From positions 27,719-91,718 of the forward strand of contig JBAXLH010000002.1 of assembly GCA_037134875.1 (NCBI GenBank): a DNA stretch of 64,000 nucleotides, read 5' to 3'. Positions 5,860 to 59,497 of this stretch are shown in pieces (the first letter of the stretch is position 1; each line of letters begins with the position of its first letter). The notes below the pieces were generated by a model. It did no database searches and had not been told where the DNA came from. It saw only the letters and a program-made list of their open reading frames with translations. This DNA is from a bacterium. Its GTDB lineage: Bacteria; Patescibacteriota; Minisyncoccia; Phycocordibacterales; DATDWN01. Made by a program: the position numbers and the translations under genes.

Positions 5860-6948
5860 TTAATACTCAGCTTTTACGTACTGCTGATTTTTTGCCATTT
5901 GGAGTTCGAGCTGGTAAACGACTGTGCGGTCTGACAAAAATTTGAAGTTTGTAATTGCTGGGTTTGGATATGCGTAGTCCAAAGTCGCTGTTGTCACATC
6001 CTTTGTTGGCTCGGCTTGTATTGCTTGCACGACATATTTTGTTATATCATATCCCATCGCCGACACAACATCAGGTGTCGTGTTAAACTTTGTTTTGTAA
6101 GCAGTTGTAAATGCTTCCGAAAACTGACTTGGAGCAATACCGGGAGCAATCGTTCCCTCTCCAAATGTTCCGAATTTCTGTAAATTTTTATTATCAACAT
6201 CAACAAATGTAATGGCAGTACCTTTGTATCCGAGCTGTCGAAGTTCCTTTACAATTTCGAGAGCATCGGTCGGATTGTCCATTGTTACAAACACCGAGTC
6301 TGCTTTGCTCGCGATTATCTTTGTGGCAAATGTTCGATAGTCCCCTTTGCCGTTTGGTGCGAGATCATTGTAAACCACTGTGTAGCCGACAGTTCCCGCC
6401 TTTGCAAGCATCACATCTCGAGACTGCATACCGAAGTCACTGTTGGCGTCGATGAGTGCCATTGTTTTGATACCTTTTTTCTGAATAAGTGGCACGACTG
6501 TGTCGAGCTGGATACTTGCGTTCGGATATCCACAGAAAACATTTGTGAGTGGCTTGAATGAATCGCTACAAAATGAGAATGAAAATACGTCTTTGTTTGC
6601 TTTGAGAGCGAGTGGAGCGACGGCGATCGTTTCGTCTGGCGAATACGTGCCGACAATCACATCAACTTTATCAATATTCAAAAGTTTTGACGCGGCAGAA
6701 ACTGCATCTGTTGGTTTCGAATGACTATCCTCCACAACAAACTTCACTCCATTTTTTTCGAGCTCTGCCTGTGCGAGCTGTACACCTTGAAATAATTTTT
6801 CTCCTGTTACCGAAAGTTCTCCAGTCAGTGGCAAAATGACACCTACTTTCAAACTCGCCACAGTGGTTGTTGCGGGTTTATTTTTTACCATCCAAACACC
6901 TGCGACTATTACCAAAATGACAATCAAAATACCGACAATTTTTTTCAT
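5860..6948 (-). CDS. Branched-chain amino acid ABC transporter substrate-binding protein, paralog 4
   Basis: 362 aa. Signal anchor MKKIVGILIVILVIVAG. LKVGVILPLTGELSVTGEKLFQGVQLAQAEL. Confidence 0.75.
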   Translation of the reverse strand: MKKIVGILIVILVIVAGVWMVKNKPATTTVASLKVGVILPLTGELSVTGEKLFQGVQLAQAELEKNGVKFVVEDSHSKPTDAVSAASKLLNIDKVDVIVGTYSPDETIAVAPLALKANKDVFSFSFCSDSFKPLTNVFCGYPNASIQLDTVVPLIQKKGIKTMALIDANSDFGMQSRDVMLAKAGTVGYTVVYNDLAPNGKGDYRTFATKIIASKADSVFVTMDNPTDALEIVKELRQLGYKGTAITFVDVDNKNLQKFGTFGEGTIAPGIAPSQFSEAFTTAYKTKFNTTPDVVSAMGYDITKYVVQAIQAEPTKDVTTATLDYAYPNPAITNFKFLSDRTVVYQLELQMAKNQQYVKAEY

Positions 6949-9754: not shown

Positions 9755-10693
9755 TTATTTAAACGTCATTGTTCCGGTGTCCAATTTCAAATCAAACACC
9801 AGTTCCCCTTTTGAAGTGAACAAATAACTTTGTACCTGGCTCAGCATTTTTGAGTAGTCTTGCTCTTGCGAACTTTCACAATACATCTGAGTAGACATCA
9901 TTTTGGTAAATGTGATTTTGTTTCCACTGACCGTATACTCCCCGCCGACACCATTGCAGTCCGTCGTCGCAGAAAAAGTTTTGTCGGCTTTAAACGTCAG
10001 TGCAAATTTATTTGTTTTTGGTGTCACAGTCGTGTCGTTGTTGTATCTCGTGTTTACCCAATTCCACGTTTTCATTGTCAATGTCATTTTGGACGGATCT
10101 GCCTCTCCTTCAAAATGTTGCGCCACCTCGCCAAACTGCATTGTCTTTGGATCGAGTTTGAGCCAAATACTTTTTCCGATTGACGGCGATACGGCAAAAC
10201 TTTCTCCGGGCTTTCTGTCCGCGTAGTTCACTACAATCACATTGGGCGTAGTCGGATCTTGCGACATCTCGGTCGTTTGAGGAGCAATGCGATCTCCGAG
10301 GAGTAATCCGTGCGAGCCAACATATCCATTGACCGTATTGAGCGCCGCTACGACATAATAAAATGTACCAGTGCCACCAGTGTTTTGCGTGAGAAGGAAC
10401 ACAGTGTCAGGACTTCCATCGCCGTCGAGATCGTGCGTCACCTCATTTCCAAAATATCGAGTTGTTATTTGTGATGCCGAACCGGGAGCAGCTGGCACAC
10501 TGGACACACCGTTGGTTAGAGTTACGGACTGTCCATCGATAGTATATGTTGCGTTTTTTGGACTCGTCGCACCGTGCGTTGTAGAAATATTTTGATCATC
10601 CGGCGACTGTCTCATAGCATAAAACACAAATGCACCTGTTCCCAAAATCACAACAATACCGAGCCCCACCCACAATAATATTTTTGTATTCAT
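9755..10693 (-). CDS. Hypothetical exported protein with C-terminal META/HslJ-like domain
   Basis: 312 aa. N-terminal TM anchor. C-terminal TTDCNGVGGEYTVSGNKITFTKMMSTQMYCESSQEQDYSKMLSQVQSY resembles the META-domain pattern (C-N..G.Y...G..L.F....T.M.C). Confidence 0.55.
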   Translation of the reverse strand: MNTKILLWVGLGIVVILGTGAFVFYAMRQSPDDQNISTTHGATSPKNATYTIDGQSVTLTNGVSSVPAAPGSASQITTRYFGNEVTHDLDGDGSPDTVFLLTQNTGGTGTFYYVVAALNTVNGYVGSHGLLLGDRIAPQTTEMSQDPTTPNVIVVNYADRKPGESFAVSPSIGKSIWLKLDPKTMQFGEVAQHFEGEADPSKMTLTMKTWNWVNTRYNNDTTVTPKTNKFALTFKADKTFSATTDCNGVGGEYTVSGNKITFTKMMSTQMYCESSQEQDYSKMLSQVQSYLFTSKGELVFDLKLDTGTMTFK

Positions 10694-47484: not shown

Positions 47485-49020
47485 TTGCCAAAATTTGACT
47501 ACAATGAATATATGGCAGATATAAAGGATCTACTTTCCCTACTCCAAAATCCAACAGATAAAGAAAAAGAGCTTGTTCAAAAAGCCTATGATTTTGCCTA
47601 TGAGGCACACAAAAACCAAAAAAGACTCTCTGGAGAGCCATATTTCAGCCATGTTTTCGCCACAGCCACATATATTGCCGAACTCGGAATGGGAGCAACG
47701 ACTGTTTCCGCCGGACTTTTGCACGACACCTTGGAGGATACACCTACTACACCAGAAGAAATTGAGAAAGAATTCGGAAAAGAAATTCGCTTTTTGGTAG
47801 AAGGTGTGACAAAACTCGGCACGATCAAATACCAAAATACGAGTCGTCACAATGAATCACTACGAAAACTTTTTGTGGCAATGTCACAAGATATTCGCGT
47901 ACTCATTATCAAACTCTGTGACAGACTACATAATATGCAGACTTTGCGATATATACCAAAAGAAAAACAACTTCGTATTGCAAAAGAAACCCTCGAAATC
48001 TACGCACCGCTCGCATATAGACTTGGTATCAAAAAACTCCAACGAGATTTGGAAGATTTGGCATTTCAATATATATATCCAGAAGAAAGTGAAAAAATAA
48101 AAAAACTGTTCAACATAAAAAAGAATGAGCAGGAAGAGCATTTGGACAAGTTCCAAAAATCACTCAAAAAAGAGCTCGCAAAAAATGAAATTACAAATTT
48201 CAAAATGGATCATCGCGTCAAAAGTATTTATTCTCTCTACAAAAAACTGAAAAGGTATGAAATGAATATCGAAACTATTTACGATATTTCAGCTCTTCGT
48301 ATTATTGTCCCCGAAGTCTCTGATTGTTACAGAATTCTAGGTATCATTCATGGAGAATGGCGACCACTACCCGGTAAAATCAAAGACTATATCGCAACAC
48401 CAAAACTTTCCGGCTATCAGTCTCTGCACACAACCATCTTTAGCGGTGATGGTGGAATTATCGAAATTCAAATCAGAACAGAAGATATGCACAAAGAAGC
48501 CGAGTATGGTATCGCATCACATATGTCATACAAAGATGGCTTGAAAAAGAAAAAAACAAATCCGAATCTGCTGTGGGTCAAAAAAATCCTGCCTATAAAA
48601 AATATTGATGAAATAGATACGAGTAAAAATCTGGATGTAAAAGACATTCCGACGTGGATTAAAGAACTTGTTGAATACCAAAAAGCAAGTGGGGATGAAT
48701 CTATGGAAGAAATCAAGTCAGACTTTTTCGAGGAGAGAATTTTTGTGTTTACCCCAAAGGGAGACGTGATTGATTTACCTGTAAACTCATCTGTGATTGA
48801 TTTTGCGTACAGTGTGCATTCTGATATTGGAAACCATCTCTCTGGCGCAAAGGTCAATGGAAAATTTACTGCCATTTATACAGTCTTGCAAAACGGTGAT
48901 AGAGTTGAAATTGAGACCAAAAAAACGGCTAAACCAAGCCATAAATGGCTGGAATTCTGCAAAACGACCATGGCAAAAAGGCATATTAGAAACACTCTCG
49001 GTATTACAAACAAAAACTAG
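47485..49020 (+). CDS. RelA/SpoT-homologue (p)ppGpp synthetase/hydrolase, short form
   Basis: 511 aa. HD hydrolase (HVFATATYI...LHDTLEDT). Synthetase (RVKSIYSLYKKLKR...). TGS (ERIFVFTPKGDVIDLP...IDFAYSVHSDIGNH). Ends before any ACT domain. Confidence 0.8.
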   Translation: MPKFDYNEYMADIKDLLSLLQNPTDKEKELVQKAYDFAYEAHKNQKRLSGEPYFSHVFATATYIAELGMGATTVSAGLLHDTLEDTPTTPEEIEKEFGKEIRFLVEGVTKLGTIKYQNTSRHNESLRKLFVAMSQDIRVLIIKLCDRLHNMQTLRYIPKEKQLRIAKETLEIYAPLAYRLGIKKLQRDLEDLAFQYIYPEESEKIKKLFNIKKNEQEEHLDKFQKSLKKELAKNEITNFKMDHRVKSIYSLYKKLKRYEMNIETIYDISALRIIVPEVSDCYRILGIIHGEWRPLPGKIKDYIATPKLSGYQSLHTTIFSGDGGIIEIQIRTEDMHKEAEYGIASHMSYKDGLKKKKTNPNLLWVKKILPIKNIDEIDTSKNLDVKDIPTWIKELVEYQKASGDESMEEIKSDFFEERIFVFTPKGDVIDLPVNSSVIDFAYSVHSDIGNHLSGAKVNGKFTAIYTVLQNGDRVEIETKKTAKPSHKWLEFCKTTMAKRHIRNTLGITNKN

Positions 49021-50114
49021 ATTGAGAAATTTTTGATGGAATACATCTCGCCATCATCTATATCTGTGTTTTCTTCTTTTTTGATTTCCTCTGGACTCCT
49101 GTCATCCAAACTTTCTGGCTCTGACTCGGTCTGATCTGTATTTTCGGATTTTTCTGGAGATGTTGCGGTATCATTTTTTGCCAAAGCATTTTTGTAGCGA
49201 GGCAATTTCATAATGGATTCGTTGACCGGTGGTTCAGGATTTTTTTCTATAAACTTGTCCAGCATTTCTGTTGGTGATTTTGGTTTGTTTGATTTTATTA
49301 ACTCCAAAATACTGTTGAGATCGTCTTGAGAAAAGAAATCTATCATAATTTTTCCTCCGTGTTCTTTCTTTTCAATTGACACCCGTGTTCCCAAAGTCTC
49401 GGTCAATTTTTCCTCCATTTCCTGAGTTTCAATATCGAGTGTAAAACCTTTTTTGTGTGTTTTATCATATGCAATTCTCCGAGCGATTGATTCTGCTTCT
49501 CGCACGGTCAATTTTTTAAACATTATTTCCTTGAACAACGTCATTTGCTCCTCTGGTCTGTCAGCGAGAGTCATAAGAGGTCTCGTGTGTCCCTCGGAAA
49601 TCTTACCGGTAGACAATGCGTCCAAAATTTCCGGGGAGAGAGCAAGAATACGCAACGTGTTGGTAACATACACGCGACTCTTGCCAACTTTCTCAGCAAT
49701 GGTGCTATGTTTGAAACCAAATTCATTTACCAGACGCTCAAATGCTCTAGCCCTGTCTACAGGATTGAGATCTTCGCGTTGAACATTTTCAATAATAGCA
49801 AGCTCGAGCTTCATCAGGTCATTTTCCTCGTCACCCACTTTGATAAGACATGGTACCTGCTGAAGACCGGCAATTCTCGATGCACGCAAACGACGCTCCC
49901 CCGCGATGAGCTCGTACTCCACAGCCAAACCTCCATCCTCTTTTGGAACTTCTTTACGAGTCACGACGAGTGCCTGCAAAACGCCATACTGCCGAATAGA
50001 GTCGGCAAGCGACTGAAGTTGCATCTCGTCAAACTCACGCCGAGGCTGAAATGGATTCGGGTGAATCTTGTCAACGTCAATCCAAAAAACTGAATCATTA
50101 TAAAATTGCGACAT
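49017..50114 (-). CDS. parB: ParB/Spo0J-family partition protein with acidic C-terminal tail
   Basis: 365 aa. ParB box LIAGERRLRASRIAGL. HTH. C-terminal Glu/Asp/Ser-rich region. Confidence 0.8.
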   Translation of the reverse strand: MSQFYNDSVFWIDVDKIHPNPFQPRREFDEMQLQSLADSIRQYGVLQALVVTRKEVPKEDGGLAVEYELIAGERRLRASRIAGLQQVPCLIKVGDEENDLMKLELAIIENVQREDLNPVDRARAFERLVNEFGFKHSTIAEKVGKSRVYVTNTLRILALSPEILDALSTGKISEGHTRPLMTLADRPEEQMTLFKEIMFKKLTVREAESIARRIAYDKTHKKGFTLDIETQEMEEKLTETLGTRVSIEKKEHGGKIMIDFFSQDDLNSILELIKSNKPKSPTEMLDKFIEKNPEPPVNESIMKLPRYKNALAKNDTATSPEKSENTDQTESEPESLDDRSPEEIKKEENTDIDDGEMYSIKNFSI

Positions 50115-50126
50115 ACCTATATTTTA

Positions 50127-51164
50127 TCACGTTACTATCTCGGGCTCAACTTCCAGATGAATGTCAAACACTTTTAAAACTTTTGTCTGTATTTTTTTAA
50201 TTAAAGCTCGTAAATCTGTTGGTTTGGCAGGTTTTTTTAATATAATAACCAAAGCATTCTTGTGATATATTCCAGCACTCCCAAGCCAGATACCTTTAAA
50301 ATCACATCTGTCAATAAGAAACCCTGCCGGAATTTTTATTTTACTATCAGATTCAAAATGAGGAACATCCGGAAATTTTTTCTGTATTTTTTTTAATTTA
50401 TTTTTTGAGACAAACGGATTTTTGAAGAAAGATCCACAGTTTGGAATTTTTTTTGGATCGGGAAGTTTTGATTTTCGTATGTCAATGATTGTCTTGTAAA
50501 TTGCAATCAGCTTGTTATCGCCTTTTCTTACATATTTATCTACAAGCTCCGATACACCTGTATATGTTGGAACTTTTGGTTCTTTTTTTGATAATTCAAA
50601 TAGTACCGAAACAATAATGGCTTTATTTTTGAGTGATTTTTTAAAAATACTATCTCGATACGAAAAATCACACTCCGTGTTTTTAAGTGATTTTATTTGA
50701 AAATCTTTTGTATCAAAATAAGAAACATTTTTAATTGTATCTTTTACTTCACATCCATATGCACCAACATTTTGGACAGGAGTAGCACCGACAGTCCCAG
50801 GAATAAGAGAGAGTGACTCGATACCGGAATAACCAGACTCGACAGCCCACGTAACAAATGTGTGCCACATAAAACCTGCACCGACTTCTACAAGGACGGT
50901 ATCCGAATTTTCTTTAATTATCTGCAAAAAATTAATTCTATTCAAAATCACAATACCGTCCCAATTTTTTGTTAAAACTATATTTGATCCTCCTCCAAGA
51001 ATTAGAGTCTTTAATTTTTCTTTTTTTGCAAAATGAATTGCTTTCTTTAGATCTATATTATTTTGTACCACACAAAAATATTTTGAAAACACATCAAACC
51101 CTAGAGTTGTATATTTTTTAAGTGATCTATTTTTATATATATTCATAGTATTTCTGTTATCCAC
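50127..51164 (-). CDS. murB: UDP-N-acetylenolpyruvoylglucosamine reductase
   Basis: 345 aa. FAD-binding LILGGGSNIV. MurB C-terminal domain. Confidence 0.8.
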   Translation of the reverse strand: MDNRNTMNIYKNRSLKKYTTLGFDVFSKYFCVVQNNIDLKKAIHFAKKEKLKTLILGGGSNIVLTKNWDGIVILNRINFLQIIKENSDTVLVEVGAGFMWHTFVTWAVESGYSGIESLSLIPGTVGATPVQNVGAYGCEVKDTIKNVSYFDTKDFQIKSLKNTECDFSYRDSIFKKSLKNKAIIVSVLFELSKKEPKVPTYTGVSELVDKYVRKGDNKLIAIYKTIIDIRKSKLPDPKKIPNCGSFFKNPFVSKNKLKKIQKKFPDVPHFESDSKIKIPAGFLIDRCDFKGIWLGSAGIYHKNALVIILKKPAKPTDLRALIKKIQTKVLKVFDIHLEVEPEIVT

Positions 51165-51205
51165 AGCCTCATCTTATATTATATCATATATGATATAATC
51201 AAAAT

Positions 51206-52714
51206 ATGACAACAATAAAAATCGGAGAAATTATAAAACAAGCTCGGGAATACAAAAACCTTACCCAAGGAGAATTGGCAAAGAAATTACATACATCTCA
51301 ATCAGCGGTTGCAAGAATGGAAAAAGGAGAACAAAATCTAACAGCGGAACAGATTTCAAAAATCAGTAATATTTTAGGAAAATCTCTTGTAAAGATAGAA
51401 GGTGAAATGGATGATTTCAAAATAGAAGGAGGGAGAAAACTCTCTGGCTTCATACAAACAAACACCTCAAAAAATGGTGCTCTCGGACTCTTTTGTGCTT
51501 CCCTGCTCAACAAACAACCGACATTATTACACGGAATTCCTCACATTGAAGAAATCTCTCGCATTATAGAAATTTTTGAAAGTATCGGTGTAAAAATAGA
51601 ATGGGTAGCACACAATTCTGTTCGAATAATTCCTCCAAAAAAATTCTTCTTGAAAAATTTAAACGCAGAAAGTGCCGGAAAGATTCGATCTGTTCTTATG
51701 GTTATTGGTTCACTTATTCATTATGAAAAAAAATTTAGCATTCCACATGCCGGTGGTTGTAATATGGGACAGAGAACAATCGCTGCACACAGATATGGCT
51801 TTGAATCCCTTGGTGTCGATATCCAAACAAAAAATGACTGTTATGAAGTAACTCACAAAAAACTAAAACCTGCCGATATTGTCTTGTATGAGGCATCAGA
51901 TACTGCCACAGAAAATCTCCTCATTGCCTCAGCGCTAATTCCGGGAATAACAACTCTCAGATTTACTCCTCCAAATTATCAAGTCCAAGAAGTTTGTTTT
52001 TTCCTACAAAAATGTGGCGTAAAAATAGATGGAATCGGTACCAGTACACTCATTATACACGGCATAAAAGAGATAAATATTCCAATAGAATATTGGAATA
52101 GTGAAGATCCAACAGAATCAATGATGTTCATTGCGTCGGCAATAGTAACAAACTCCACACTGACAATTACCCGTTGTCCAATTGATTTTCTTTCTCTCGA
52201 ACTTTTGAAATTGGAAAAAATGGGTCTCATATATAGAACATCAAAAATATATATGGCAAAAAACGAACATACACGACTGTGTGATATTGTCATTTATCCT
52301 TCCAAACTAAAAGCTTCTCGTGACAAAATACACGCCTCGGCCTATCCAGGTATAAATACAGACAATCTTCCCTTCTTTGTGCCCATAGTAACTCAGGCAG
52401 AAGGCACGACGCTCATTCACGACTGGATGTGGGAAAATAGAGCAATATATTTCACAGAACTTAATCGACTTGGTGCCGATATCATCCTAGCAGATCCTCA
52501 TAGGGTTTTTGTTACTGGCCCAAGAATACTCAAAGCAAATCAAATCGTTTGCCCGCCCGCGCTCAGACCGTCAACAATTATTCTTGTTGCAATGCTTGGT
52601 GCAAAAGGAACTTCCATTTTACGCAATGTATATGCCATCAATCGCGGATACGAAAATATTGCCGAGCGACTAAACTCGATCGGTGCAAATATAAAACTAT
52701 TAAATGAATTCTAA
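51206..52714 (+). CDS. murA: XRE-family HTH domain fused to UDP-N-acetylglucosamine 1-carboxyvinyltransferase (MurA)
   Basis: 502 aa. Residues 1-65 are a Cro/C1 HTH (IIKQAREYKNLTQGELAKKLHTSQSAVARMEKGEQNLTAEQISKISNILG). The rest is EPT-fold MurA including a candidate catalytic Cys loop (PHAGGCNMGQRTIAAH). Confidence 0.8.
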   Translation: MTTIKIGEIIKQAREYKNLTQGELAKKLHTSQSAVARMEKGEQNLTAEQISKISNILGKSLVKIEGEMDDFKIEGGRKLSGFIQTNTSKNGALGLFCASLLNKQPTLLHGIPHIEEISRIIEIFESIGVKIEWVAHNSVRIIPPKKFFLKNLNAESAGKIRSVLMVIGSLIHYEKKFSIPHAGGCNMGQRTIAAHRYGFESLGVDIQTKNDCYEVTHKKLKPADIVLYEASDTATENLLIASALIPGITTLRFTPPNYQVQEVCFFLQKCGVKIDGIGTSTLIIHGIKEINIPIEYWNSEDPTESMMFIASAIVTNSTLTITRCPIDFLSLELLKLEKMGLIYRTSKIYMAKNEHTRLCDIVIYPSKLKASRDKIHASAYPGINTDNLPFFVPIVTQAEGTTLIHDWMWENRAIYFTELNRLGADIILADPHRVFVTGPRILKANQIVCPPALRPSTIILVAMLGAKGTSILRNVYAINRGYENIAERLNSIGANIKLLNEF

Positions 52715-52760
52715 AAATTAAAATCTTAAGTTGATTGAAGTATTGATTTGTTGACTATGT

Positions 52761-53165
52761 TTGTGTTATGGTGGCACCGGAATCAAACCTATGGACACTT
52801 CCAGTATTGATATGGAAATTATATTTGAAGGAATAGACAACCATACTCTCAGCGGACGGAAAATATTACAGATCCCTAAGCAAAATAATTTGAACATCCT
52901 AAGTCAGCAAGAAGTCCTTGAACTTTTCGAGACCAATAGTCCGGTTTTGGAGCGATTCAAGGTGTACAACCTTCTTCGCCGACCAGTTTTTATTTTTTGT
53001 AATGAAATGTTTCCTACTCCACATTCTGATGTAGCAAGTGGAGACAAAAGTGTATGGTATTTCTGTTGGATAGAAACATTTAACTCTTGGTACAAGTGCC
53101 ATTGGAGGGTTGAAGACACATGGAACGTAACAGTGGCAATATTAGTCAATCGCACCAGTAGATAG
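52761..53165 (+). CDS. Hypothetical protein (ends 11 nt before the island's left att repeat)
   Basis: 134 aa ORF. No motif. Confidence 0.3.
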   Translation: MCYGGTGIKPMDTSSIDMEIIFEGIDNHTLSGRKILQIPKQNNLNILSQQEVLELFETNSPVLERFKVYNLLRRPVFIFCNEMFPTPHSDVASGDKSVWYFCWIETFNSWYKCHWRVEDTWNVTVAILVNRTSR

Positions 53166-53322
53166 GTGCGTTTTTTGTGCCGGAGGGGAGAAGACTTGGT
53201 CAGGAATATTTTATTCGCCGTCGCTCATAAAATTTCCCGACCCGGCCTTCGCGACCAAGTCTGCTGACTTGGTACCCGCTCCGGCTTTCAAGTCTCCCAC
53301 GCAAAGCTTCGCTTTGCTTCCT

Positions 53323-53614
53323 GTGCGTTTATTTTACCAAATCCGAACCTGTTTTCAAAATAGCAATGTTGGCAATGACAACATCGGCAAGTAATGTGCC
53401 ACGCTCCACGCCTGTGGTGATGTGAAGCTAATCGTACGCAAAAGAATTCCGTCACGCCGTAGCGTCCACTACAGCGAACCTCACCGAGCACCTACAGGTG
53501 CTCGTCTCGTCTCGCTTCCGTTCCCGCTCCGTCGTTCCGCCCTCGCCTTTCCCCGCATCCATGCTTTTTTGTTTGCGGCGGTTTTTGAATTTTTTTTGGA
53601 ATGGCGCGGGGAAA
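53323..53614. repeat. Left copy of ~290-bp near-identical inverted repeat (IR-L)
   Basis: Reverse complement of 56306-56598 with about 3 mismatches and 1 indel. Confidence 0.85.
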
Positions 53615-53817
53615 GCTCGGGCGGGTTTCCTCTAAGGAGGAAACTGACGGAATTCACTGCTACGTTATCTGCACTTCAGTGACAACTCTAACATAATCAT
53701 TCGCCTCGGACATTCCTTTGGGCTAGTGGTGATATAAACATTGTGGTTATGTAACGACGCCCAAAACGGAATATGTCCGAAGCTACAAAACAAAAACACA
53801 AGACATTGAAATTGTTA

Positions 53818-54096
53818 CTACTTATGTTTTTTGTTTAAAATTTCATCTCTTTCACCGAACCTAAATAATTGTTGATCTTCAACAATACGATAATCATGTT
53901 TTACCACAGCGGCATAGACAGTAGCCTCATCAACATCCTGGCAGGTGTTTAAATCGTTATCTACCCATAAAAATGATCCATTCTCGGTCTGTAAAAAATA
54001 CTTAGACCCCCCTAAGTCTTTTAGCACAGCAAAGACCTTGACCTTCTGATTATCTCGATCAATACCTTTTTTCATTTCAAAATTTCCTTCATTCAT
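53818..54096 (-). CDS. Hypothetical small cargo protein (candidate partner or immunity protein)
   Basis: 92 aa. Lies 6 nt downstream of the large cargo gene on the same strand. Confidence 0.5.
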   Translation of the reverse strand: MNEGNFEMKKGIDRDNQKVKVFAVLKDLGGSKYFLQTENGSFLWVDNDLNTCQDVDEATVYAAVVKHDYRIVEDQQLFRFGERDEILNKKHK

Positions 54097-54101
54097 AATT
54101 A

Positions 54102-56319
54102 TTATTCTATAATATTAATTTTATCACGCCAAACGGGATTATTTCTTAGTTCATCCAAAAAACTAGTATCTTCTTCACTTGCATTTGTCAGTGCTGATCG
54201 AGGAATATTTATACTTTCTATATTTTCAAATTTAGGATTTCTGATCTGTGCTTCAAGATACCCATTAAGTGCGGGGCCAACATGAGATTGATTCTTGGCT
54301 TCAGCTTGACGTTTAAGGTCAACAGCTATTAGGGCTTTTGCAAGTGGGGCGTGATCAGCTGATATTTGTCTGCTTCTTGGATTTTCCACATTTTCATATT
54401 CATCTTCTAAAGCCCTATTTCCCTTAAAGCCAGAACCCTTGCTTTTAATTGTTTTGTTAGTCTTACCCGTAACGAAATTTATACCTTGTGCTTCCATTGA
54501 ATCTCCTTCTGTATATGAAGTTTCTGTGTCGGCCTTAAACTTGATGAATATGTCTCCATATTGTTTAGCCCCTCCGTACATATTTTCGTTATTAAAATCA
54601 TGAGCGTATGCACCATATAGCACAACTTCATTGCCATCCCGCCTGACACCCAATGCTTCTTCAACTGCTTTTCTCTTATTATAATATCTAGGACTTAACG
54701 ACCTAAACATTTTCTTCTTTTCGCTAGCACTCAATCCAAATACATCCTTGAATTCTCCAGAGTCAATAACTTTGCGAATTGAACCCATGCTGGTATTGAC
54801 GCTAATAAAACCTGTAGATTGACTGCGTTCAAATTCACTATTAAGCATTTCCGTGAGTTGTTCACGGCTGATTGTTTTTCGAAAATCCTGTCTAGAAACT
54901 GTAGCTTGCTCGTTTGCCTCTCTCGCTAATTGATAAGCTTGCTCGTCTACTCGCCCATCGACGGTCTCTAGTTCATACATATCAGCCAGTGAATCACGAA
55001 TATTTTGGAAAGATCTTTGAAGAGCCTCTCGTTTATCTTCCGGAGCTTCTGCAAGGGCACTATCTTGGTTTTTGGATGATACACCAAAATTTTTATAAAC
55101 ATTATTTTCTAGATATGTAGACATGTCTTCTTCTGGCGATAGGATAGTATCAAATTTTTGGGCAATTGGTGCTTCTGTCACATGAGTAGCAATTTCTTGA
55201 AGAGGAGTTTTTGGTTCGGCCCGAACATCTGGTTTGTGATCAAAACCTTCCGTATTGTTTATCACATCCCCATGACTCTGTGTCATATCTTCTGGCACGT
55301 GTCTCTCAAGGCCTTCTTTTGTTTCAGTCGCTTCAACTGGAATTGTCTTTTCCGTAATGACTGAAGTTTCTGGGGTTTCTGTTGGCTCAAACTGTTTTAT
55401 TTTTTCATATACAACTTTATTATCTTCTAAGCTACCTTCAGAAATTGGTAGAGATTTAACTACAGATTCAGTAACTTGTACTTCTGGAACTGGTATTGCT
55501 TCTTTCTGAAGATCTTTTAATTCAGTCTGTTGCTCTACTTTTTCAACAACAGATTGTTTTTCTGGTAACCCTTCGATATTTACTAGTTTTTCTTCTCTCT
55601 GCTGATCTGGTTTATACTCATCAACAGCGTGTGGAATTTTTAGTGTATAGATATTTTTACTTTCGTTTAATGTCGTATTCCTAAGATCAAGTAGGTTACT
55701 AATTCTTGGAGCATTTTCTGTTTTTAGGAGTTCTTTTTGTTCAGGACTTCTTGCTAAATTAAATCTTGGTGATTGTAAAGGCACTCGTCCTCTACCTGTC
55801 TCATTCGGTAAAGAATTTTGCTTGTTTCCCGAAATTAATTGAGGTTTTTGTTTATTACCGCCAATCGTATTCCCGGCTGAATTTCCACCTGGAATTTTTG
55901 CTAAAACTTTTTTAGCTTTTGAATCAAAATATAATTTAACGATAGTCAATGTACATTCTGGTAGCATATTAACAATTGGGATAAATCCAATAACAGCTCC
56001 AGCGATCATGGTTTTTTTAGAATATGTTTCCCCATTCATTTTGAAAACGAGCCAAAACGTAGCAAAAGCGAAACCATCTATAAACATGGCTAATATTTCA
56101 CCTGCTATCGGTATTAGACTTATAAGAGCTTCGAGCGTATCAAAAAATAGTGCGGTTCCAATTAAAACCATCCATGTCCCTTTTCCAATATTAGATTTAT
56201 TCTCTTCCACAATATGTCTATTATATAACAGACTAAAATCAATCTCAATAAAATTTATGAGGTAATTACTTATCTGCTTATCAATATGATATTGATCCTT
56301 AAAATTTCCCCGCGCCATT
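54102..56319 (-). CDS. Large hypothetical membrane protein with low-complexity linker and uncharacterised C-terminal domain
   Basis: ~740 aa from MARGNFKD (ATG inside the IR edge). The track's GTG-extended start at 56498 only reads through the repeat. N-terminal 4-5 TM helices. Long Q/E/T/P-rich region. C-terminal ~300-aa globular domain. Confidence 0.55.
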
Positions 56320-56598
56320 CCAAAAAAAAATTCAAAAACCGCCGCAAACAAAAAAGCATGGATGCGGGGAAATGCGAGGGCGGAACGACGGAGCGGGAAC
56401 GGAAGCGAGCCGAGACGAGCACCTGTAGGTGCTCGGTGAGGTTCGCTGTAGTGGACGCTACGGCGTGACGGAATTCTTTTGCGTACGATTAGCTTCACAT
56501 CACCACAGGCGTGGAGCGTGGCACATTACTTGCCGATGTTGTCATTGCCAACATTGCTATTTTGAAAACAGGTTCGGATTTGGTAAAATAAACGCACC
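56306..56598. repeat. Right copy of ~290-bp inverted repeat (IR-R)
   Basis: See IR-L. Contains a TTGGCA-17-TAATGT promoter-like sequence pointing into the cargo. Confidence 0.85.
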
Positions 56599-56710
56599 TT
56601 AAACGAACTAAAGGGTTCTGAACCCGAACCCAAGCGGAACGCGCAAAGCGCGTGCCAAGGATTTTTTGGCGGGATTGCAAGGGAATTTCCCGAATCCAGC
56701 GCGCTCACCG
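56598..56710. repeat. ~113-bp inverted repeat, copy C (partner at 58336-58450)
   Basis: cgaactaaagggttctgaacccgaacccaagcggaacgcgcaaagcgcgtgccaagg... is the exact reverse complement of 58340-58445. Confidence 0.8.
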
Positions 56711-56810
56711 CTACTTTTTTTTCGCCGAGGAGGAGGTTCGAAATCAGAAGCAATTTTGACTAATTTATTTTGCTTGCAAGACAAAAAGAATTTTTGCTAT
56801 ACTATGTTTG

Positions 56811-56885
56811 CAACCAACTGATCGAAAGGCTTTTTTAATGGCCGTCTTGGACAATTCGAAGCTTTTCGAGTTGGTTGCACCAGGA
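56811..56885 (+). promoter_or_regulatory. Nested inverted repeats (candidate operator/recombinase-binding site) between a TGn-TATACT promoter and the integrase start
   Basis: gcaaccaact...agttggttgc and aatggccgtc...gacggccatt. Confidence 0.35.
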
Positions 56886-56911
56886 CGGCCATTTAAGTTT
56901 TCAAAATATAT

Positions 56912-58564
56912 ATGAATAATATATCTCCGCAAAAATTCTTTTTGTATGCACGCAAGTCAACCGATGTCGAGGACAAGCAAGTTTTGAGTATTGATGCACA
57001 AATTGCAGAATTGCGCGCTTTCGCCAAAAATGAAAAGTTAGAAATCATGGAGGAATTTGTAGAAAAACGCACTGCGAAAATTCCAGGTCGTCCCATTTTT
57101 GGCGAAATGATGAGACGAATTGAGAAAGGTGAAGTAAATGGTATTTTAGCGTGGCATCCAGATCGTCTCGCGCGCAATTCTGTTGACGGCGGACAAATTA
57201 TTTACTTTGTTGATATCGGAAAACTTACCATGTTGAAATTTCCCTCGCACTGGTTTGAAAATACTCCGCAAGGAAAGTTTTCACTTTCCATGGCGTTCGT
57301 TCAGTCAAAATATTATGTTGATTCTCTTTCCGAAAATACCAAACGTGGACTTCGCCAAAAAGTACGCATGGGTATTTTCCCAAGCCAAGCTCCTCTCGGT
57401 TATATAAACGACAGTAGAACAAAAACGATTGTGGTAGAAAAGAAAAAATCTCGCATTATTCGCTTGGCTTTTGAAAAATATGTTAAAGGTGGTGAGCGAC
57501 TGGAGGATATCGCCACCTTTTTGGCCAAGTCCGGCATATTAACATGGAATGGAAAGAGAATCTCAAAAACTCGCACTTCTTTTATTTTATCAAACCCGTT
57601 CTATGTTGGTTTTTTCAACTACTCGGGAGAATTACACGAAGGCAAACACGAGCCAATCATTTCAAAAAAACTTTTTGATGAAGCACAGGAAATGTTGAGG
57701 TCTCGCGGTCAGCCAGAGCGTAAACCGAAAAACGAACCTCAACCTTTTTGCGGACTCATTTCCTGTGCTTCATGCGGAATGATGATAACTGGCGAACACA
57801 AATTCAAACGGCAGAAAAATGGAAATGTTCACGAGTATACATATTATCGTTGTACCAAAAAACGAAAAGATTTTCATTGTCCCGAATCTGCCGTTAGAGA
57901 AAAAGAATTGGATCGCCAGTTATCATCTCTAATACAAAAAGTTTCTTTGCCCAAAGACTGGGCGGAAGAATTATTGAAAATGGCAGAAAAAGATTTTCAA
58001 AATTCCGCCCCGTCTTTGGTTGCTTGTGTGAAAGAGAAAGAGATCAAAATTTCTGCTATATCACAAAAGTTGGAGCGACTTCTCAATGGCTATTTAGACC
58101 AAGATATTGAAAAGGAAATTTATCGTTCTGAAAAAGCAAAATTATTACTTTCCAAGAAGTCGCTCGAGGAAGAAATGACATCTCTTTCACACAAGCAAAA
58201 TGATTGGCTCGAACCGATGCAGAAGTGGTTAATATCCGCGCAGAATGTGGACAAAATCGCTTCTGATTCAGACCTTTTTGCTAAAAAGGTCTGTGCCAAA
58301 GAAATCTTTGGCTCGAACCTCCTCCTCGACGAAAAAACAGTGCGCGCAAGCGCGCTGGATTCGGGAAATTCCCTTGCAATCCCGCCAAAAAATCCTTGGC
58401 ACGCGCTTTGCGCGTTCCGCTTGGGTTCGGGTTCAGAACCCTTTAGTTCGTTTAAGGTGCCGGAGGGGAGACTTGAACTCCCATCCCTTTCGAGACACGA
58501 TTTTGAGTCGTGCGTGTATACCAATTCCACCACTCCGGCAATACATACAGAATACCCGAAATAG
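56912..58564 (+). CDS. Large serine recombinase (serine integrase)
   Basis: 550 aa. Resolvase catalytic domain (FLYARKSTDVEDKQVLSIDAQ; ILAWHPDRLARN). Recombinase domain. Zinc ribbon (CGLISCASCGMMITG...YYRCTKKRKDFHCP). Coiled coil. The 3' end reads through repeat C' and tRNA-Leu, so the true C-terminus is uncertain. Confidence 0.8.
   Translation: MNNISPQKFFLYARKSTDVEDKQVLSIDAQIAELRAFAKNEKLEIMEEFVEKRTAKIPGRPIFGEMMRRIEKGEVNGILAWHPDRLARNSVDGGQIIYFVDIGKLTMLKFPSHWFENTPQGKFSLSMAFVQSKYYVDSLSENTKRGLRQKVRMGIFPSQAPLGYINDSRTKTIVVEKKKSRIIRLAFEKYVKGGERLEDIATFLAKSGILTWNGKRISKTRTSFILSNPFYVGFFNYSGELHEGKHEPIISKKLFDEAQEMLRSRGQPERKPKNEPQPFCGLISCASCGMMITGEHKFKRQKNGNVHEYTYYRCTKKRKDFHCPESAVREKELDRQLSSLIQKVSLPKDWAEELLKMAEKDFQNSAPSLVACVKEKEIKISAISQKLERLLNGYLDQDIEKEIYRSEKAKLLLSKKSLEEEMTSLSHKQNDWLEPMQKWLISAQNVDKIASDSDLFAKKVCAKEIFGSNLLLDEKTVRASALDSGNSLAIPPKNPWHALCAFRLGSGSEPFSSFKVPEGRLELPSLSRHDFESCVYTNSTTPAIHTEYPK
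58336..58450. repeat. Inverted repeat copy C'
   Basis: Reverse complement of 56598-56710. Confidence 0.8.
58456..58539 (-). tRNA. tRNA-Leu (anticodon CAA), type II with long variable arm
   Basis: Minus strand. Acceptor GCCGGAG/CUCCGGC. D-arm GUG-GAAUUGGUAUA-CAC. Anticodon stem CACGA/UCGUG with loop CUCAAAA. Variable arm UCUCGAAAGGGAU. T-arm GGGAG-UUCAAGU-CUCCC. Discriminator A. CCA not encoded. Confidence 0.85.
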
Positions 58565-58603
58565 CCAAAAAATCAAATTGTGGTACTGTATATTCGTACT
58601 AAT

Positions 58604-59497
58604 ATGAAGCCAAGAGTTATAGTCATTTTGGGGCCAACAGCCACAGGCAAGTCCAATCTAGCCGTACAGATAGCCAAAAAATATAATGGTGAGATTATTT
58701 CTGCTGATTCAAGACAGGTATACACAGGACTCAATATCGGCACAGGCAAAATCACAAAAAAGGAAATGCAAGGTGTCCCCCACCATATGCTCGACGTGGC
58801 AAATCCAAAAAAAAGATATGATATTTCAACATGGCAAAAAGAAACAAAGAAAATAATTTCTAATATTTATTCTCGAAATAAATTACCGATCATTTGTGGT
58901 GGTACTGGTTTTTACATTCAATCAATCGTTGAAAATTTTATTCTGCCAAAAGTTCCACCAAATAAAAAACTGCGAGAAAAACTGGAGAAAAAATCAGCGA
59001 CAGAACTTTTTGAAATTTTAAAAAAACTTGATTTACAGAGAGCAAAAACAATTGAAAAAGAAAATCCTGTGCGTCTCGTGCGAGCGATTGAAATCGCAAC
59101 CGCTCTTGGTGGAGTCCCCTCTCTCGATCGAGTAAAGAGTCAATCATACGAGTGTCTGCAAATCGGACTTACTCTTCCCGACGAGAAACTCAAAGAAAGA
59201 ATAAAAATTCGTCTCGAGAAAAGACTCGAAACTGGAATGCTCGCTGAGGCAAAAAAACTTCACCAGCAAGGTCTCTCATGGAAGCGAATGTTTGAGCTCG
59301 GACTCGAATACAGATACGAAGCACTCCTCCTGCAAAACAAAATCTCGAAAACAGATTTCGTCGAGAAACTGAACACAGAAATCTGGCACTATGCCAAACG
59401 CCAAATCACATGGTTTAAACGCGACAAACAGATTCATTGGTTCTCCCCGACACAAGTTAGAGAAATTGAAAAAGTAGTCAAAAACTTTTTAGATTGA
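58604..59497 (+). CDS. miaA: tRNA dimethylallyltransferase
   Basis: P-loop VIVILGPTATGKSNLAVQIA...ISADSRQVYTGLNIGTGKIT. Start taken at MKPRV. Confidence 0.85.
   Translation: MKPRVIVILGPTATGKSNLAVQIAKKYNGEIISADSRQVYTGLNIGTGKITKKEMQGVPHHMLDVANPKKRYDISTWQKETKKIISNIYSRNKLPIICGGTGFYIQSIVENFILPKVPPNKKLREKLEKKSATELFEILKKLDLQRAKTIEKENPVRLVRAIEIATALGGVPSLDRVKSQSYECLQIGLTLPDEKLKERIKIRLEKRLETGMLAEAKKLHQQGLSWKRMFELGLEYRYEALLLQNKISKTDFVEKLNTEIWHYAKRQITWFKRDKQIHWFSPTQVREIEKVVKNFLD

Follow-up and report, generated by a model that had tools for sequence, protein, structure and literature searches.

A Likely tRNA-Integrated Large Serine Recombinase Element of Patescibacteria with an Inverted Duplication of Its attP Region

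Genes and Repeats at the Locus

The DNA analyzed here, referred to as the window, is a 64,000-nucleotide stretch of contig JBAXLH010000002.1 (GCA_037134875.1) from a bacterium of the Patescibacteria. Positions 53323 to 58455 contain two cargo genes, a serine recombinase gene and two pairs of inverted repeats (IR1 and IR2), and they end at the 3′ end of a minus-strand tRNA-Leu(caa) gene. An initial annotation, made from the sequence alone, viewed the cargo genes and their flanking repeats as a possible invertible segment. Our analyses instead indicate that the region is likely an integrated element of ~5.1 kb that is moved by a large serine recombinase (LSR) and carries an inverted duplication of its ~440-bp attP region, with one of the two copies split. 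The principal features, in which the two parts of the attP region are designated A and B, are the following.

53323–53614, + strand: left arm of IR1 (IR1-L), which is B and forms the left end of the element; predicted P′ side of the split attP, with the outer end at the host junction
53818–54096, − strand: cargo gene 2, encoding a 92-aa protein with no family match
54102–56318, − strand: cargo gene 1, encoding a 738-aa orphan protein, with its ATG 13 nt inside IR1-R
56306–56597, − strand: right arm of IR1 (IR1-R), inverted B; predicted P′ side of the intact internal attP
56594–56598: predicted internal, inverted attP core, GCACC on the + strand (the reverse complement of GGTGC)
56594–56741, − strand: left arm of IR2 (IR2-L), inverted A; predicted P side of the internal attP
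56912–58564, + strand: LSR open reading frame (ORF), 550 aa as integrated, running through A and ending in tRNA antisense
58313–58460, + strand: right arm of IR2 (IR2-R), which is A and encodes recombinase tail residues 468–515; predicted P side of the split attP; contains covarying hairpins
58456–58539, − strand: tRNA-Leu(caa) (58.6 bits), predicted integration target (attB side), with the gene intact

The IR1 arms (53323–53614 and 56306–56597/8) are 292 to 293 nt long and 99% identical, differing at 53510 (T/G), at 53547 (C/A) and by an indel in a T-run near 53590. The near-perfect repeats of the initial annotation are real, with two mismatches and one indel in place of the approximately three mismatches and one indel that had been counted, and they indeed bracket only the two cargo genes. 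The IR2 arms (56594–56741 and 58313–58460) bracket the recombinase gene; this second pair had also been recognized, but at ~113 bp, which is the length of its perfectly identical outer part, and the full arms extend to 148 nt with 95 to 96% identity (6–8 differences). Neither repeat has further copies within the 64-kb window. As had been stated, the repeats are GC-richer than their surroundings, with a G+C content of 51 to 54% compared to 36 to 39% for the cargo and recombinase body and 40.6% for the whole window. The hairpin GAGCACCTACAGGTGCTC and the motif TTGGCA-17-TAATGT, both placed inside the repeat, are present in B, and the start codon of the large cargo gene, an ATG at 56318, lies 13 nt inside IR1-R as described.

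The Recombinase Is a Phage-Type Large Serine Recombinase

The serine recombinase assigned to the gene beside the repeats was borne out by its domains. The protein contains a PF00239 Resolvase domain (2.9e-19, aa 10–154) with a YARKST motif at the N terminus, a PF07508 Recombinase domain (2.2e-17) and a PF13408 Zn_ribbon_recom domain (5.3e-09), and it matches the phrog_95 integrase family (6.6e-80). In structure comparisons (PDB entries 4kis and 9dxh) it also aligns to the C-terminal domain of the A118/LI integrase (aa 199–453) and to SPbeta YokA, and the canonical recombinase fold ends near aa 453. By these matches the enzyme is an LSR, a phage-type integrase. Pfam revealed no DDE transposase, leaving the serine recombinase as the sole enzyme. 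Its best phage and plasmid LSR relatives share 24 to 30% identity and only over aa 10–405, and a scan of IMG/VR with the recombinase returned no relatives, giving no support to a viral origin. Judged from its sequence, the recombinase belongs to a distinct LSR clade.

The Two Repeat Pairs Form One Interrupted Pair

IR1-R and IR2-L adjoin and overlap by GCACC at 56594–56598. This abutment makes 56306–56741 a single continuous block, which is the reverse complement of A·B. The corresponding direct parts lie at opposite ends of the element: A (58313–58455) is the 3′ end of the recombinase ORF and ends 4 to 5 nt inside the minus-strand tRNA-Leu(caa) gene, and B (53323–53614) is the far-left end. 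The apparent two repeat pairs can thus be understood as one interrupted pair, arising from the split of one copy of a duplicated region, and we are confident of this anatomy. The abutting of the repeat pairs, the tRNA-Leu(caa) gene, the run-through of the ORF into tRNA antisense and the conservation of the layout had been missed in the initial annotation, whose other suggestion, a composite cassette, came close to this arrangement.

The three junctions read as follows.

Host|B, 53322/3: ...GCTTCCT GTGC GTTTATTTTACC...
A|B, inverted, 56598: ...GTTTAAG GTGC GTTTATTTTACC...
A|tRNA, 58450–5: ...GTTTAAG GTGC CGGAGGGGAGAC...

Only GTGC is common to all three. We surveyed the layout in 80 genome loci (related loci are designated by L and a number), and the cores in seven other complete loci are GTG, TGGTG, TTGGTG or GAG, giving a shared core of 3 to 6 nt overall that matches the tRNA discriminator/CCA end when read as the reverse complement. 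LSR joints have a very short core with a 2-bp crossover, and likewise the junctions here share the core and show no target-site duplication. On sequence grounds, the junctions of B with the left host flank (X|B, with X described below), of inverted A with B and of A with the tRNA gene form the pattern expected for the attL, intact attP and attR sites of an LSR. In addition, LSR attP half-sites have the motif bound by the zinc-ribbon domain ~5 bp farther out than attB half-sites. We compared this known shift with that of a GAAC motif, a putative binding site, which in the window, L008, L023 and L043 is 4 nt more distant from the core in B than is the T-loop GAAC in the tRNA (counted by hand).

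These data favor a scheme in which the LSR would recombine attP (A|B) with an attB site located at the very 3′ end of a tRNA gene, with crossover in the 3- to 6-nt shared core, here GTGC. The attP region would be carried twice in inverted orientation, each copy comprising A (147 nt, the recombinase 3′ end), the core and B (~290 nt). Integration would split one copy, such that its B part becomes IR1-L (attL, X|B) and its A part becomes IR2-R (attR, A|tRNA-Leu), and would leave the other copy intact inside the element as IR1-R plus IR2-L. This internal attP would divide the element into a cargo module (B-cargo-B′) and a recombinase module (A′-recombinase-A). The predicted empty site is ...GCTTTGCTTCCT GTGC CGGAGGGGAGACTTGAAC..., and the transferred form would presumably be a circle with two inverted attP copies.

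Mismatches between arms cluster at the inner ends of both repeat pairs in the window and in L008, L014, L020, L023, L036 and L041, which leaves a perfect block of ~300 nt centered on the att core. This clustering could reflect conversion tracts extending from the core or eroded repeat edges.

The Predicted attP Lies within the Recombinase Reading Frame

The recombinase ORF is open through A in every locus and then continues into a variable tRNA-antisense tail that differs by tRNA. Read in the A·B frame, the first ~40 nt of B specify a C-terminal peptide of the recombinase that is conserved (..LYQVRTYF..). In the window this coding potential is found twice.

53323–53394, + strand: left copy of the start of B (B-start), encoding RLFYQIRTCFQNS... 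in the A·B frame and detached from the recombinase body
56526–56753, − strand: mirror reading frame through A and B-start, ending in the conserved ...SSFKVRLFYQIRTCFQNSNVGNDNIGK*

The tail reads (S/R/C)L(L/F)YQ(V/I/A)RT(Y/C/H/W)FQN(K/R) in close relatives and LYDIARTYF, ILKIARTEF, LYEKVRTSF or LYNEVRTYF in distant ones; the pattern [LVIF]Y..[VAI]R[TNS].F closes the A·B frame in 28 distinct sequences. Within these 28 sequences the codons vary synonymously, the Arg being encoded by CGA (17), AGA (8) or CGG (3), the Thr by ACC, ACT, ACA or ACG and the Phe by TTT or TTC. Such synonymous variation at invariant residues points to selection on the protein. That the reading frame crosses from A into B and closes with this conserved peptide argues that A and B belong to one gene. 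Moreover, because this peptide is encoded in B, beyond the core, attP would lie inside the recombinase ORF and integration would swap the tail, with tRNA-antisense sequence replacing the native C-terminal peptide. Recombinase homologs with the native tail are mostly on short contigs. The swap may alter the activity of the enzyme.

The Layout Is Conserved in Patescibacteria

Relatives of the recombinase number in the thousands. The best 120 are 62 to 89% identical to it, and nearly all of those with an assigned taxon name come from Patescibacteria. The recombinase gene lies between the arms of a ~147-nt repeat; these arms are often 100% alike within a locus and only ~75 to 85% alike between genomes. 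The right IR2 arm abuts a minus-strand tRNA gene in the 27 loci in which IR2 is resolved, and overall a tRNA gene directly follows the recombinase gene in ~35 loci. The target tRNAs are Leu (five anticodons), Gly, Val, Arg, Thr, Lys, Glu, Gln and Ser. Inverted B-start is located to the left of IR2-L in ~34 loci. Both IR1 arms were found in 13 loci besides the window, with the second B arm 0.75 to 5.2 kb farther left; these include contigs of 623 kb (L023) and 206 kb (L008) as well as loci with recombinases of only 42 to 45% identity (L065, L066, L073, L077, L078 and the second element in L051). The elements range from 3.7 to 8 kb in size. Most recombinase contigs end inside the repeats, so that the layout is rarely assembled whole. 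The family is widespread in Patescibacteria, and the recurrence of its architecture in dozens of genomes marks that architecture as a genuine, shared design rather than an error of assembly or an on/off switch confined to this locus. We found no description of it in the full-text literature, a search with most subscription journals outside its scope, and a prior description is possible.

Two different family members often occur on separate contigs of one metagenome-assembled genome (MAG), as in L012/L035, L017/L036, L054/L060 and L072/L073. Genomes commonly contain more than one such element.

Alternative Explanations

That the repeats arose in assembly, through the collapse or duplication of a repeat or through an inverted chimera, is an explanation to which we give almost no credence. 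The arms are nearly identical, and in other assemblies the breaks in the cargo module (L090, L091) and in most recombinase contigs coincide exactly with the repeats. However, the arms are not the same sequence (two mismatches and one indel in IR1, 6–8 differences in IR2), the junctions fall at a biologically meaningful core and a tRNA 3′ end, and the layout recurs in >30 MAGs that various projects produced with various assemblers, among them contigs of 206 to 623 kb, and with arm identities of 81 to 100%. Furthermore, a second independent assembly of the locus (L089, GCA_964547445.1) is 99.99% identical over 19.9 kb and shows the same arrangement. Its only two differences from the window over that length are at 53510 and 53547, where the IR1 arms differ, and at both positions its left arm carries the bases of the right arm. 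This could reflect gene conversion between the arms or consensus noise, and in either case there are two real copies. The initial annotation had allowed that near-identity might equally reflect collapse of a repeat, a caveat that these comparisons refute. The arms may be kept alike by gene conversion.

A programmed, phase-variable segment of 2.7 kb, flipped by the recombinase in the manner of P1 C/Cin or Mu G/Gin, is in our judgment improbable; the initial annotation had noted a resemblance to invertase-controlled segments. The P1 C segment, inverted by Cin, has 0.6-kb inverted repeats, and Gin of Mu and Hin of Salmonella are small invertases of ~190 aa that consist of a catalytic domain and a helix-turn-helix. 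There are likenesses to these systems: the cargo is enclosed by inverted repeats that are long and nearly identical, the outer ends of these repeats carry crossover-type cores (like the P1 cix sites), and a serine recombinase gene is located immediately outside. The arms also exchange alleles between the two assemblies of the organism, the cargo genes are found on either strand in different loci, and much of the cargo, as read from translations, appears to be surface exposed or secreted. However, the enzyme is a phage-type integrase of 514+ aa and there is no small invertase of the Hin/Gin type. The two sites are also unlike, the left being of attL type (host|B) and the right of attP type (B′|A′), and recombination between attL-type and attP-type sites is not known for LSRs. 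The predicted start codon and promoter-like motif are inside the repeat and are thus present in both arms, making it unlikely that inversion of the cargo would change expression. The repeats are fully explained by one inverted ~440-bp attP duplication with one copy split by integration at tRNA-Leu, and the cargo differs in every related locus, with no relationship from one locus to another. The two assemblies show the cargo in one and the same orientation, and no other was seen; a contig made up of the cargo module by itself carries no information on orientation. Physical inversion through the repeats is possible, but as a phase-variable switch under invertase control the segment is unsupported.

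Similarly improbable is that the locus comprises two independent elements, with A′-recombinase-A being an insertion sequence (IS)-like unit and B-cargo-B′ a nonautonomous passenger that is a chance neighbor or is mobilized in trans. Each module does have terminal inverted repeats. The cargo module forms its own contig in L090, and the recombinase module occurs by itself, located directly between the 3′ ends of tRNA-Arg and tRNA-Leu in L025 and against tRNA-Lys at the left and the contig end at the right in L038; L007 probably has the same arrangement. Yet a single step of conservative serine recombination at a nonpalindromic core would not allow insertion of a unit whose ends are inverted, and no target-site duplication or DDE transposase was found that would fit an IS-like unit. 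Behind each A|tRNA junction there must have been an A|B partner, and exactly this partner is present at the module boundary. The continuation of the recombinase frame from A into B, with its conserved peptide end, marks A and B as parts of one gene. In addition, no cargo module was found away from a recombinase, and the homolog of the large cargo protein in L085 lacks repeats.

A recombinase module flanked by tRNA genes is also the product expected if the internal attP of the integrated LSR element recombined with a second tRNA gene. The two-tRNA loci, together with one locus in which the module is flipped (L092), suggest that the internal attP is still active. In L092 the recombinase module is reversed relative to its tRNA and recombinase-A|B is contiguous; its arms differ at six positions near the core, which makes them distinguishable by a k = 141 assembly. 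Among the candidates for flipped or circular forms, only this locus is informative. L093, L094 and L144 were set aside because their arms are 100% or nearly identical and may represent ambiguous graph walks, as was L145, which lacks an upstream arm and seems by eye to be joined to an FtsW-like fragment. In L092, an inverted and 3′-truncated second recombinase gene, 85% identical over 410 nt, follows A|B-start (9996–10474); it could be a nested or rearranged element or cargo with a recombinase pseudogene.

Several observations weigh against an integrated LSR element with a duplicated attP. If the two attP copies were equivalent, both module orientations should be common, and they are not: L092 alone is flipped, compared to ~35 loci with the recombinase directed toward the tRNA. 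Recombinase-A|B contiguity is seen in ~20% of recombinase homologs on short contigs, but these may be ambiguous walks through the assembly graph. No circular form, attB/attP pair or excision product of the window element was seen, and neither a circular contig nor a replication gene was found. No recombination directionality factor was found, as only the recombinase gene is conserved across elements; a small or unrecognized factor is possible. LSRs normally need sites of only ~50 bp, and the scheme does not account for the duplication of 147 + ~290 bp. Finally, the window lacks the terminator that usually separates X from tRNA-Leu, so that the exact ancestral attB was not recovered.

Hairpins, Promoter-Like Sites and a Possible Regulatory Circuit

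A carries three G+C-rich hairpins. The middle one has a 9-bp stem and a TTYG loop and keeps its register across 27 sequences, with 96.7% of cells paired compared to 70.9% in shuffles. Five of the nine pairs show compensatory two-sided changes, the observed values were matched by none of 500 shuffles, and G-U pairs are nearly absent. The amino acids encoded over the stem vary (WAALCAAH, WDALRASH, WACLRHAH). That the amino acids change and the stem is kept indicates a constraint on the nucleic acid, on both strands. The A·B block as a whole was also considered as one structured RNA, which a fold z-score of −1.28 did not support; it is the local hairpins that covary.

Further promoter-like regions were noted in and beside the repeats, the sites in each being consensus matches only.

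53331–53358, − strand: promoter-like TTGAAA-16-TAAAAT with TG, in B-start, directed outward into the host flank
56562–56589, + strand: the same outward promoter-like site in the internal B copy, directed across the core toward the recombinase gene
56742–56911, + strand: S2, recombinase promoter-like region and structured leader

S2 contains TTGCAA-18-TATACT (56774–56803), whose −10 context, TGCTATACT, recurs in related loci. The recombinase 5′ untranslated region of ~110 nt forms a long hairpin with apparent compensatory changes across loci (by eye), which suggests regulated translation of the recombinase. The presence in S2 of its own promoter-like site, with its recurring −10 context, weakens the outward site in B-start as a candidate recombinase promoter.

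A tentative and, in our estimation, rather doubtful extension is that the integrase regulates itself. Loss of the tail would lock or reprogram the enzyme without a directionality factor, and the inverted spare copy of attP and tail would let the element move again through a rare flip of the module between its 147-bp arms, as in L092, rebuilding a full-length enzyme beside an intact attP. Recombination of that attP with another tRNA gene would then give the two-tRNA loci and tRNA-gene rearrangements, and the A hairpins would be part of the switch.

Relation to Known Systems

The LSRs of phages and integrative and conjugative elements (ICEs), such as those of A118 (LI), phiC31, Bxb1 and SPbeta (SprA/YokA), have the same Resolvase, Recombinase and zinc ribbon domains. 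They are alike in having attL-, attP- and attR-type junctions that share few bases, and the outward GAAC shift of the P-type arm (B) relative to the B-type (tRNA) arm in the loci counted may be a further likeness. By contrast, the window family has attP inside the recombinase ORF and always a second, inverted copy of the ~440-bp attP region. It also differs in that close relatives of the window recombinase target many different tRNAs and in that the elements are tiny, with no visible directionality factor or phage genes.

The yeast 2-micron plasmid replicates and has FRT, the target of the tyrosine recombinase Flp, inside 599-bp inverted repeats, inversion through which amplifies its copy number. 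The putative circle described here would be similar in having two long inverted repeats that hold the recombination target and two unique segments, one of which encodes the recombinase. Unlike the plasmid, the window element is integrated in a tRNA gene and shows no replication function, and its circle is a prediction from the integrated form. In SSV1, the archaeal integrase gene is split near its 5′ end upon integration, and in mycobacteriophages with integration-dependent immunity the repressor is truncated; both use tyrosine integrases. These systems are alike in that attP is in a coding sequence of the element and integration at a tRNA gene changes the encoded protein. Here, however, it is the last ~13 to 25 codons of a serine recombinase that would be exchanged, and a spare inverted copy of the tail is kept.

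Our analyses thus turn a set of odd local repeats into a defined and abundant family of small mobile elements in Patescibacteria, a phylum in which mobile elements are poorly described. They also explain a recurrent break in MAG assembly, as most recombinase contigs end in the repeats. An LSR clade with many tRNA 3′-end targets bears on site choice and on use in genome engineering, and an attP in the recombinase ORF, through which integration would edit the enzyme, offers a simple possible route to directionality control. The differing cargo, with many surface or secreted-looking genes, suggests that the elements may be a route of gene exchange in reduced genomes, and a live internal attP may drive tRNA-gene rearrangements.

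The Host Flank

The left junction adjoins a structured sequence.

53173–53322, + strand: X, a structured host element in the left host flank, whose last 4 nt, GTGC, are the left-junction core

X is G+C-rich and its 5′ and 3′ ends pair with each other. X-like elements of 150 to 290 nt adjoin the 3′ end of unoccupied tRNA-Leu(caa) genes in many metagenome contigs, including L129 (452–600), L135 (1145–1432), L131 (~6200–6340) and L137 (coordinates as oriented by the search pattern). In L129 and L137 the order is ParB, X-like, tRNA-Leu, MiaA and the recombinase element is absent, indicating that X is host sequence that lies outside the mobile element. By gene order and sequence, these two loci are empty-site equivalents from distant relatives of other species (51–56% aa identity). 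An exact-pattern metagenome scan for a same-species empty site gave only more distant relatives. The left flank of L023 and of L036 consists of a terminator hairpin and a T-run, an arrangement expected 3′ of a tRNA gene.

A direct repeat of 15 to 26 nt of the tRNA 3′ end (53166–53191, with the 15-nt copy at 53177–53191) was considered as the att duplication of an element spanning 53192–58455. We rejected this because the repeat is the 5′ end of X and the same sequence is present in genomes without the recombinase element.

Rfam was run over the whole window at the gathering threshold and over 53100–58700 at E ≤ 1, and it returned only tRNA, with no match over X. At its 5′ end, X resembles the 3′ end of tRNA-Leu in reverse complement. 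X, which adjoins tRNA-Leu(caa) in many Patescibacteria, could represent either a small RNA not yet described or an element derived from a tRNA.

Gene order around tRNA-Leu(caa) varies among relatives (window 49017–59497 compared to L095–L143). The orders seen were ParB|tRNA-MiaA, MurA-MurB|tRNA-ParB and, in the window, ParB-MurB-MurA-ORF134-X-[element]-tRNA-MiaA. The breakpoints coincide with tRNA ends, which could fit recombinase-driven rearrangement or chance.

Cargo Genes

Neither cargo protein of the window has a match in Pfam, PADLOC or PHROGs. The translation of the 738-aa protein contains hydrophobic, membrane-like stretches at the N terminus and a long low-complexity linker. Its single homolog found, P0122 in L085, is 58% identical over 37% of the query. 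In L085 (7665–10006) the homolog is followed by a 91-aa gene and the pair is located directly 3′ of a tRNA-Phe gene recognized by eye; the locus has neither repeats nor a recombinase. This is a hint that host DNA beside tRNA genes serves as a source of cargo.

Between IR1-L and the 92-aa gene lies one further feature.

53615–53817: S1, unique noncoding spacer

The left arm (53600–53695, + strand) has the same ATGGCGCGGGG start as the 738-aa gene, and there it opens an ORF of only 31 aa (MARGKLGRVSSKEETDGIHCYVICTSVTTLT) that runs antisense toward the 92-aa gene.

The cargoes of other loci, labeled from reading of translations and not from family searches, include a 521-aa protein, two lipoprotein-like genes, three HIT-like/NadD-like genes, a four-gene cluster with glycosyltransferase-like and methyltransferase-like ORFs, an IS-like insertion and single N-terminally anchored proteins. 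The 5.2-kb cargo module of L027 (4324–9510) contains, as judged from translations only, ORFs resembling an IS-type transposase and a fragmented tryptophanyl-tRNA-synthetase-like gene, which suggests that cargo modules accumulate secondary insertions.

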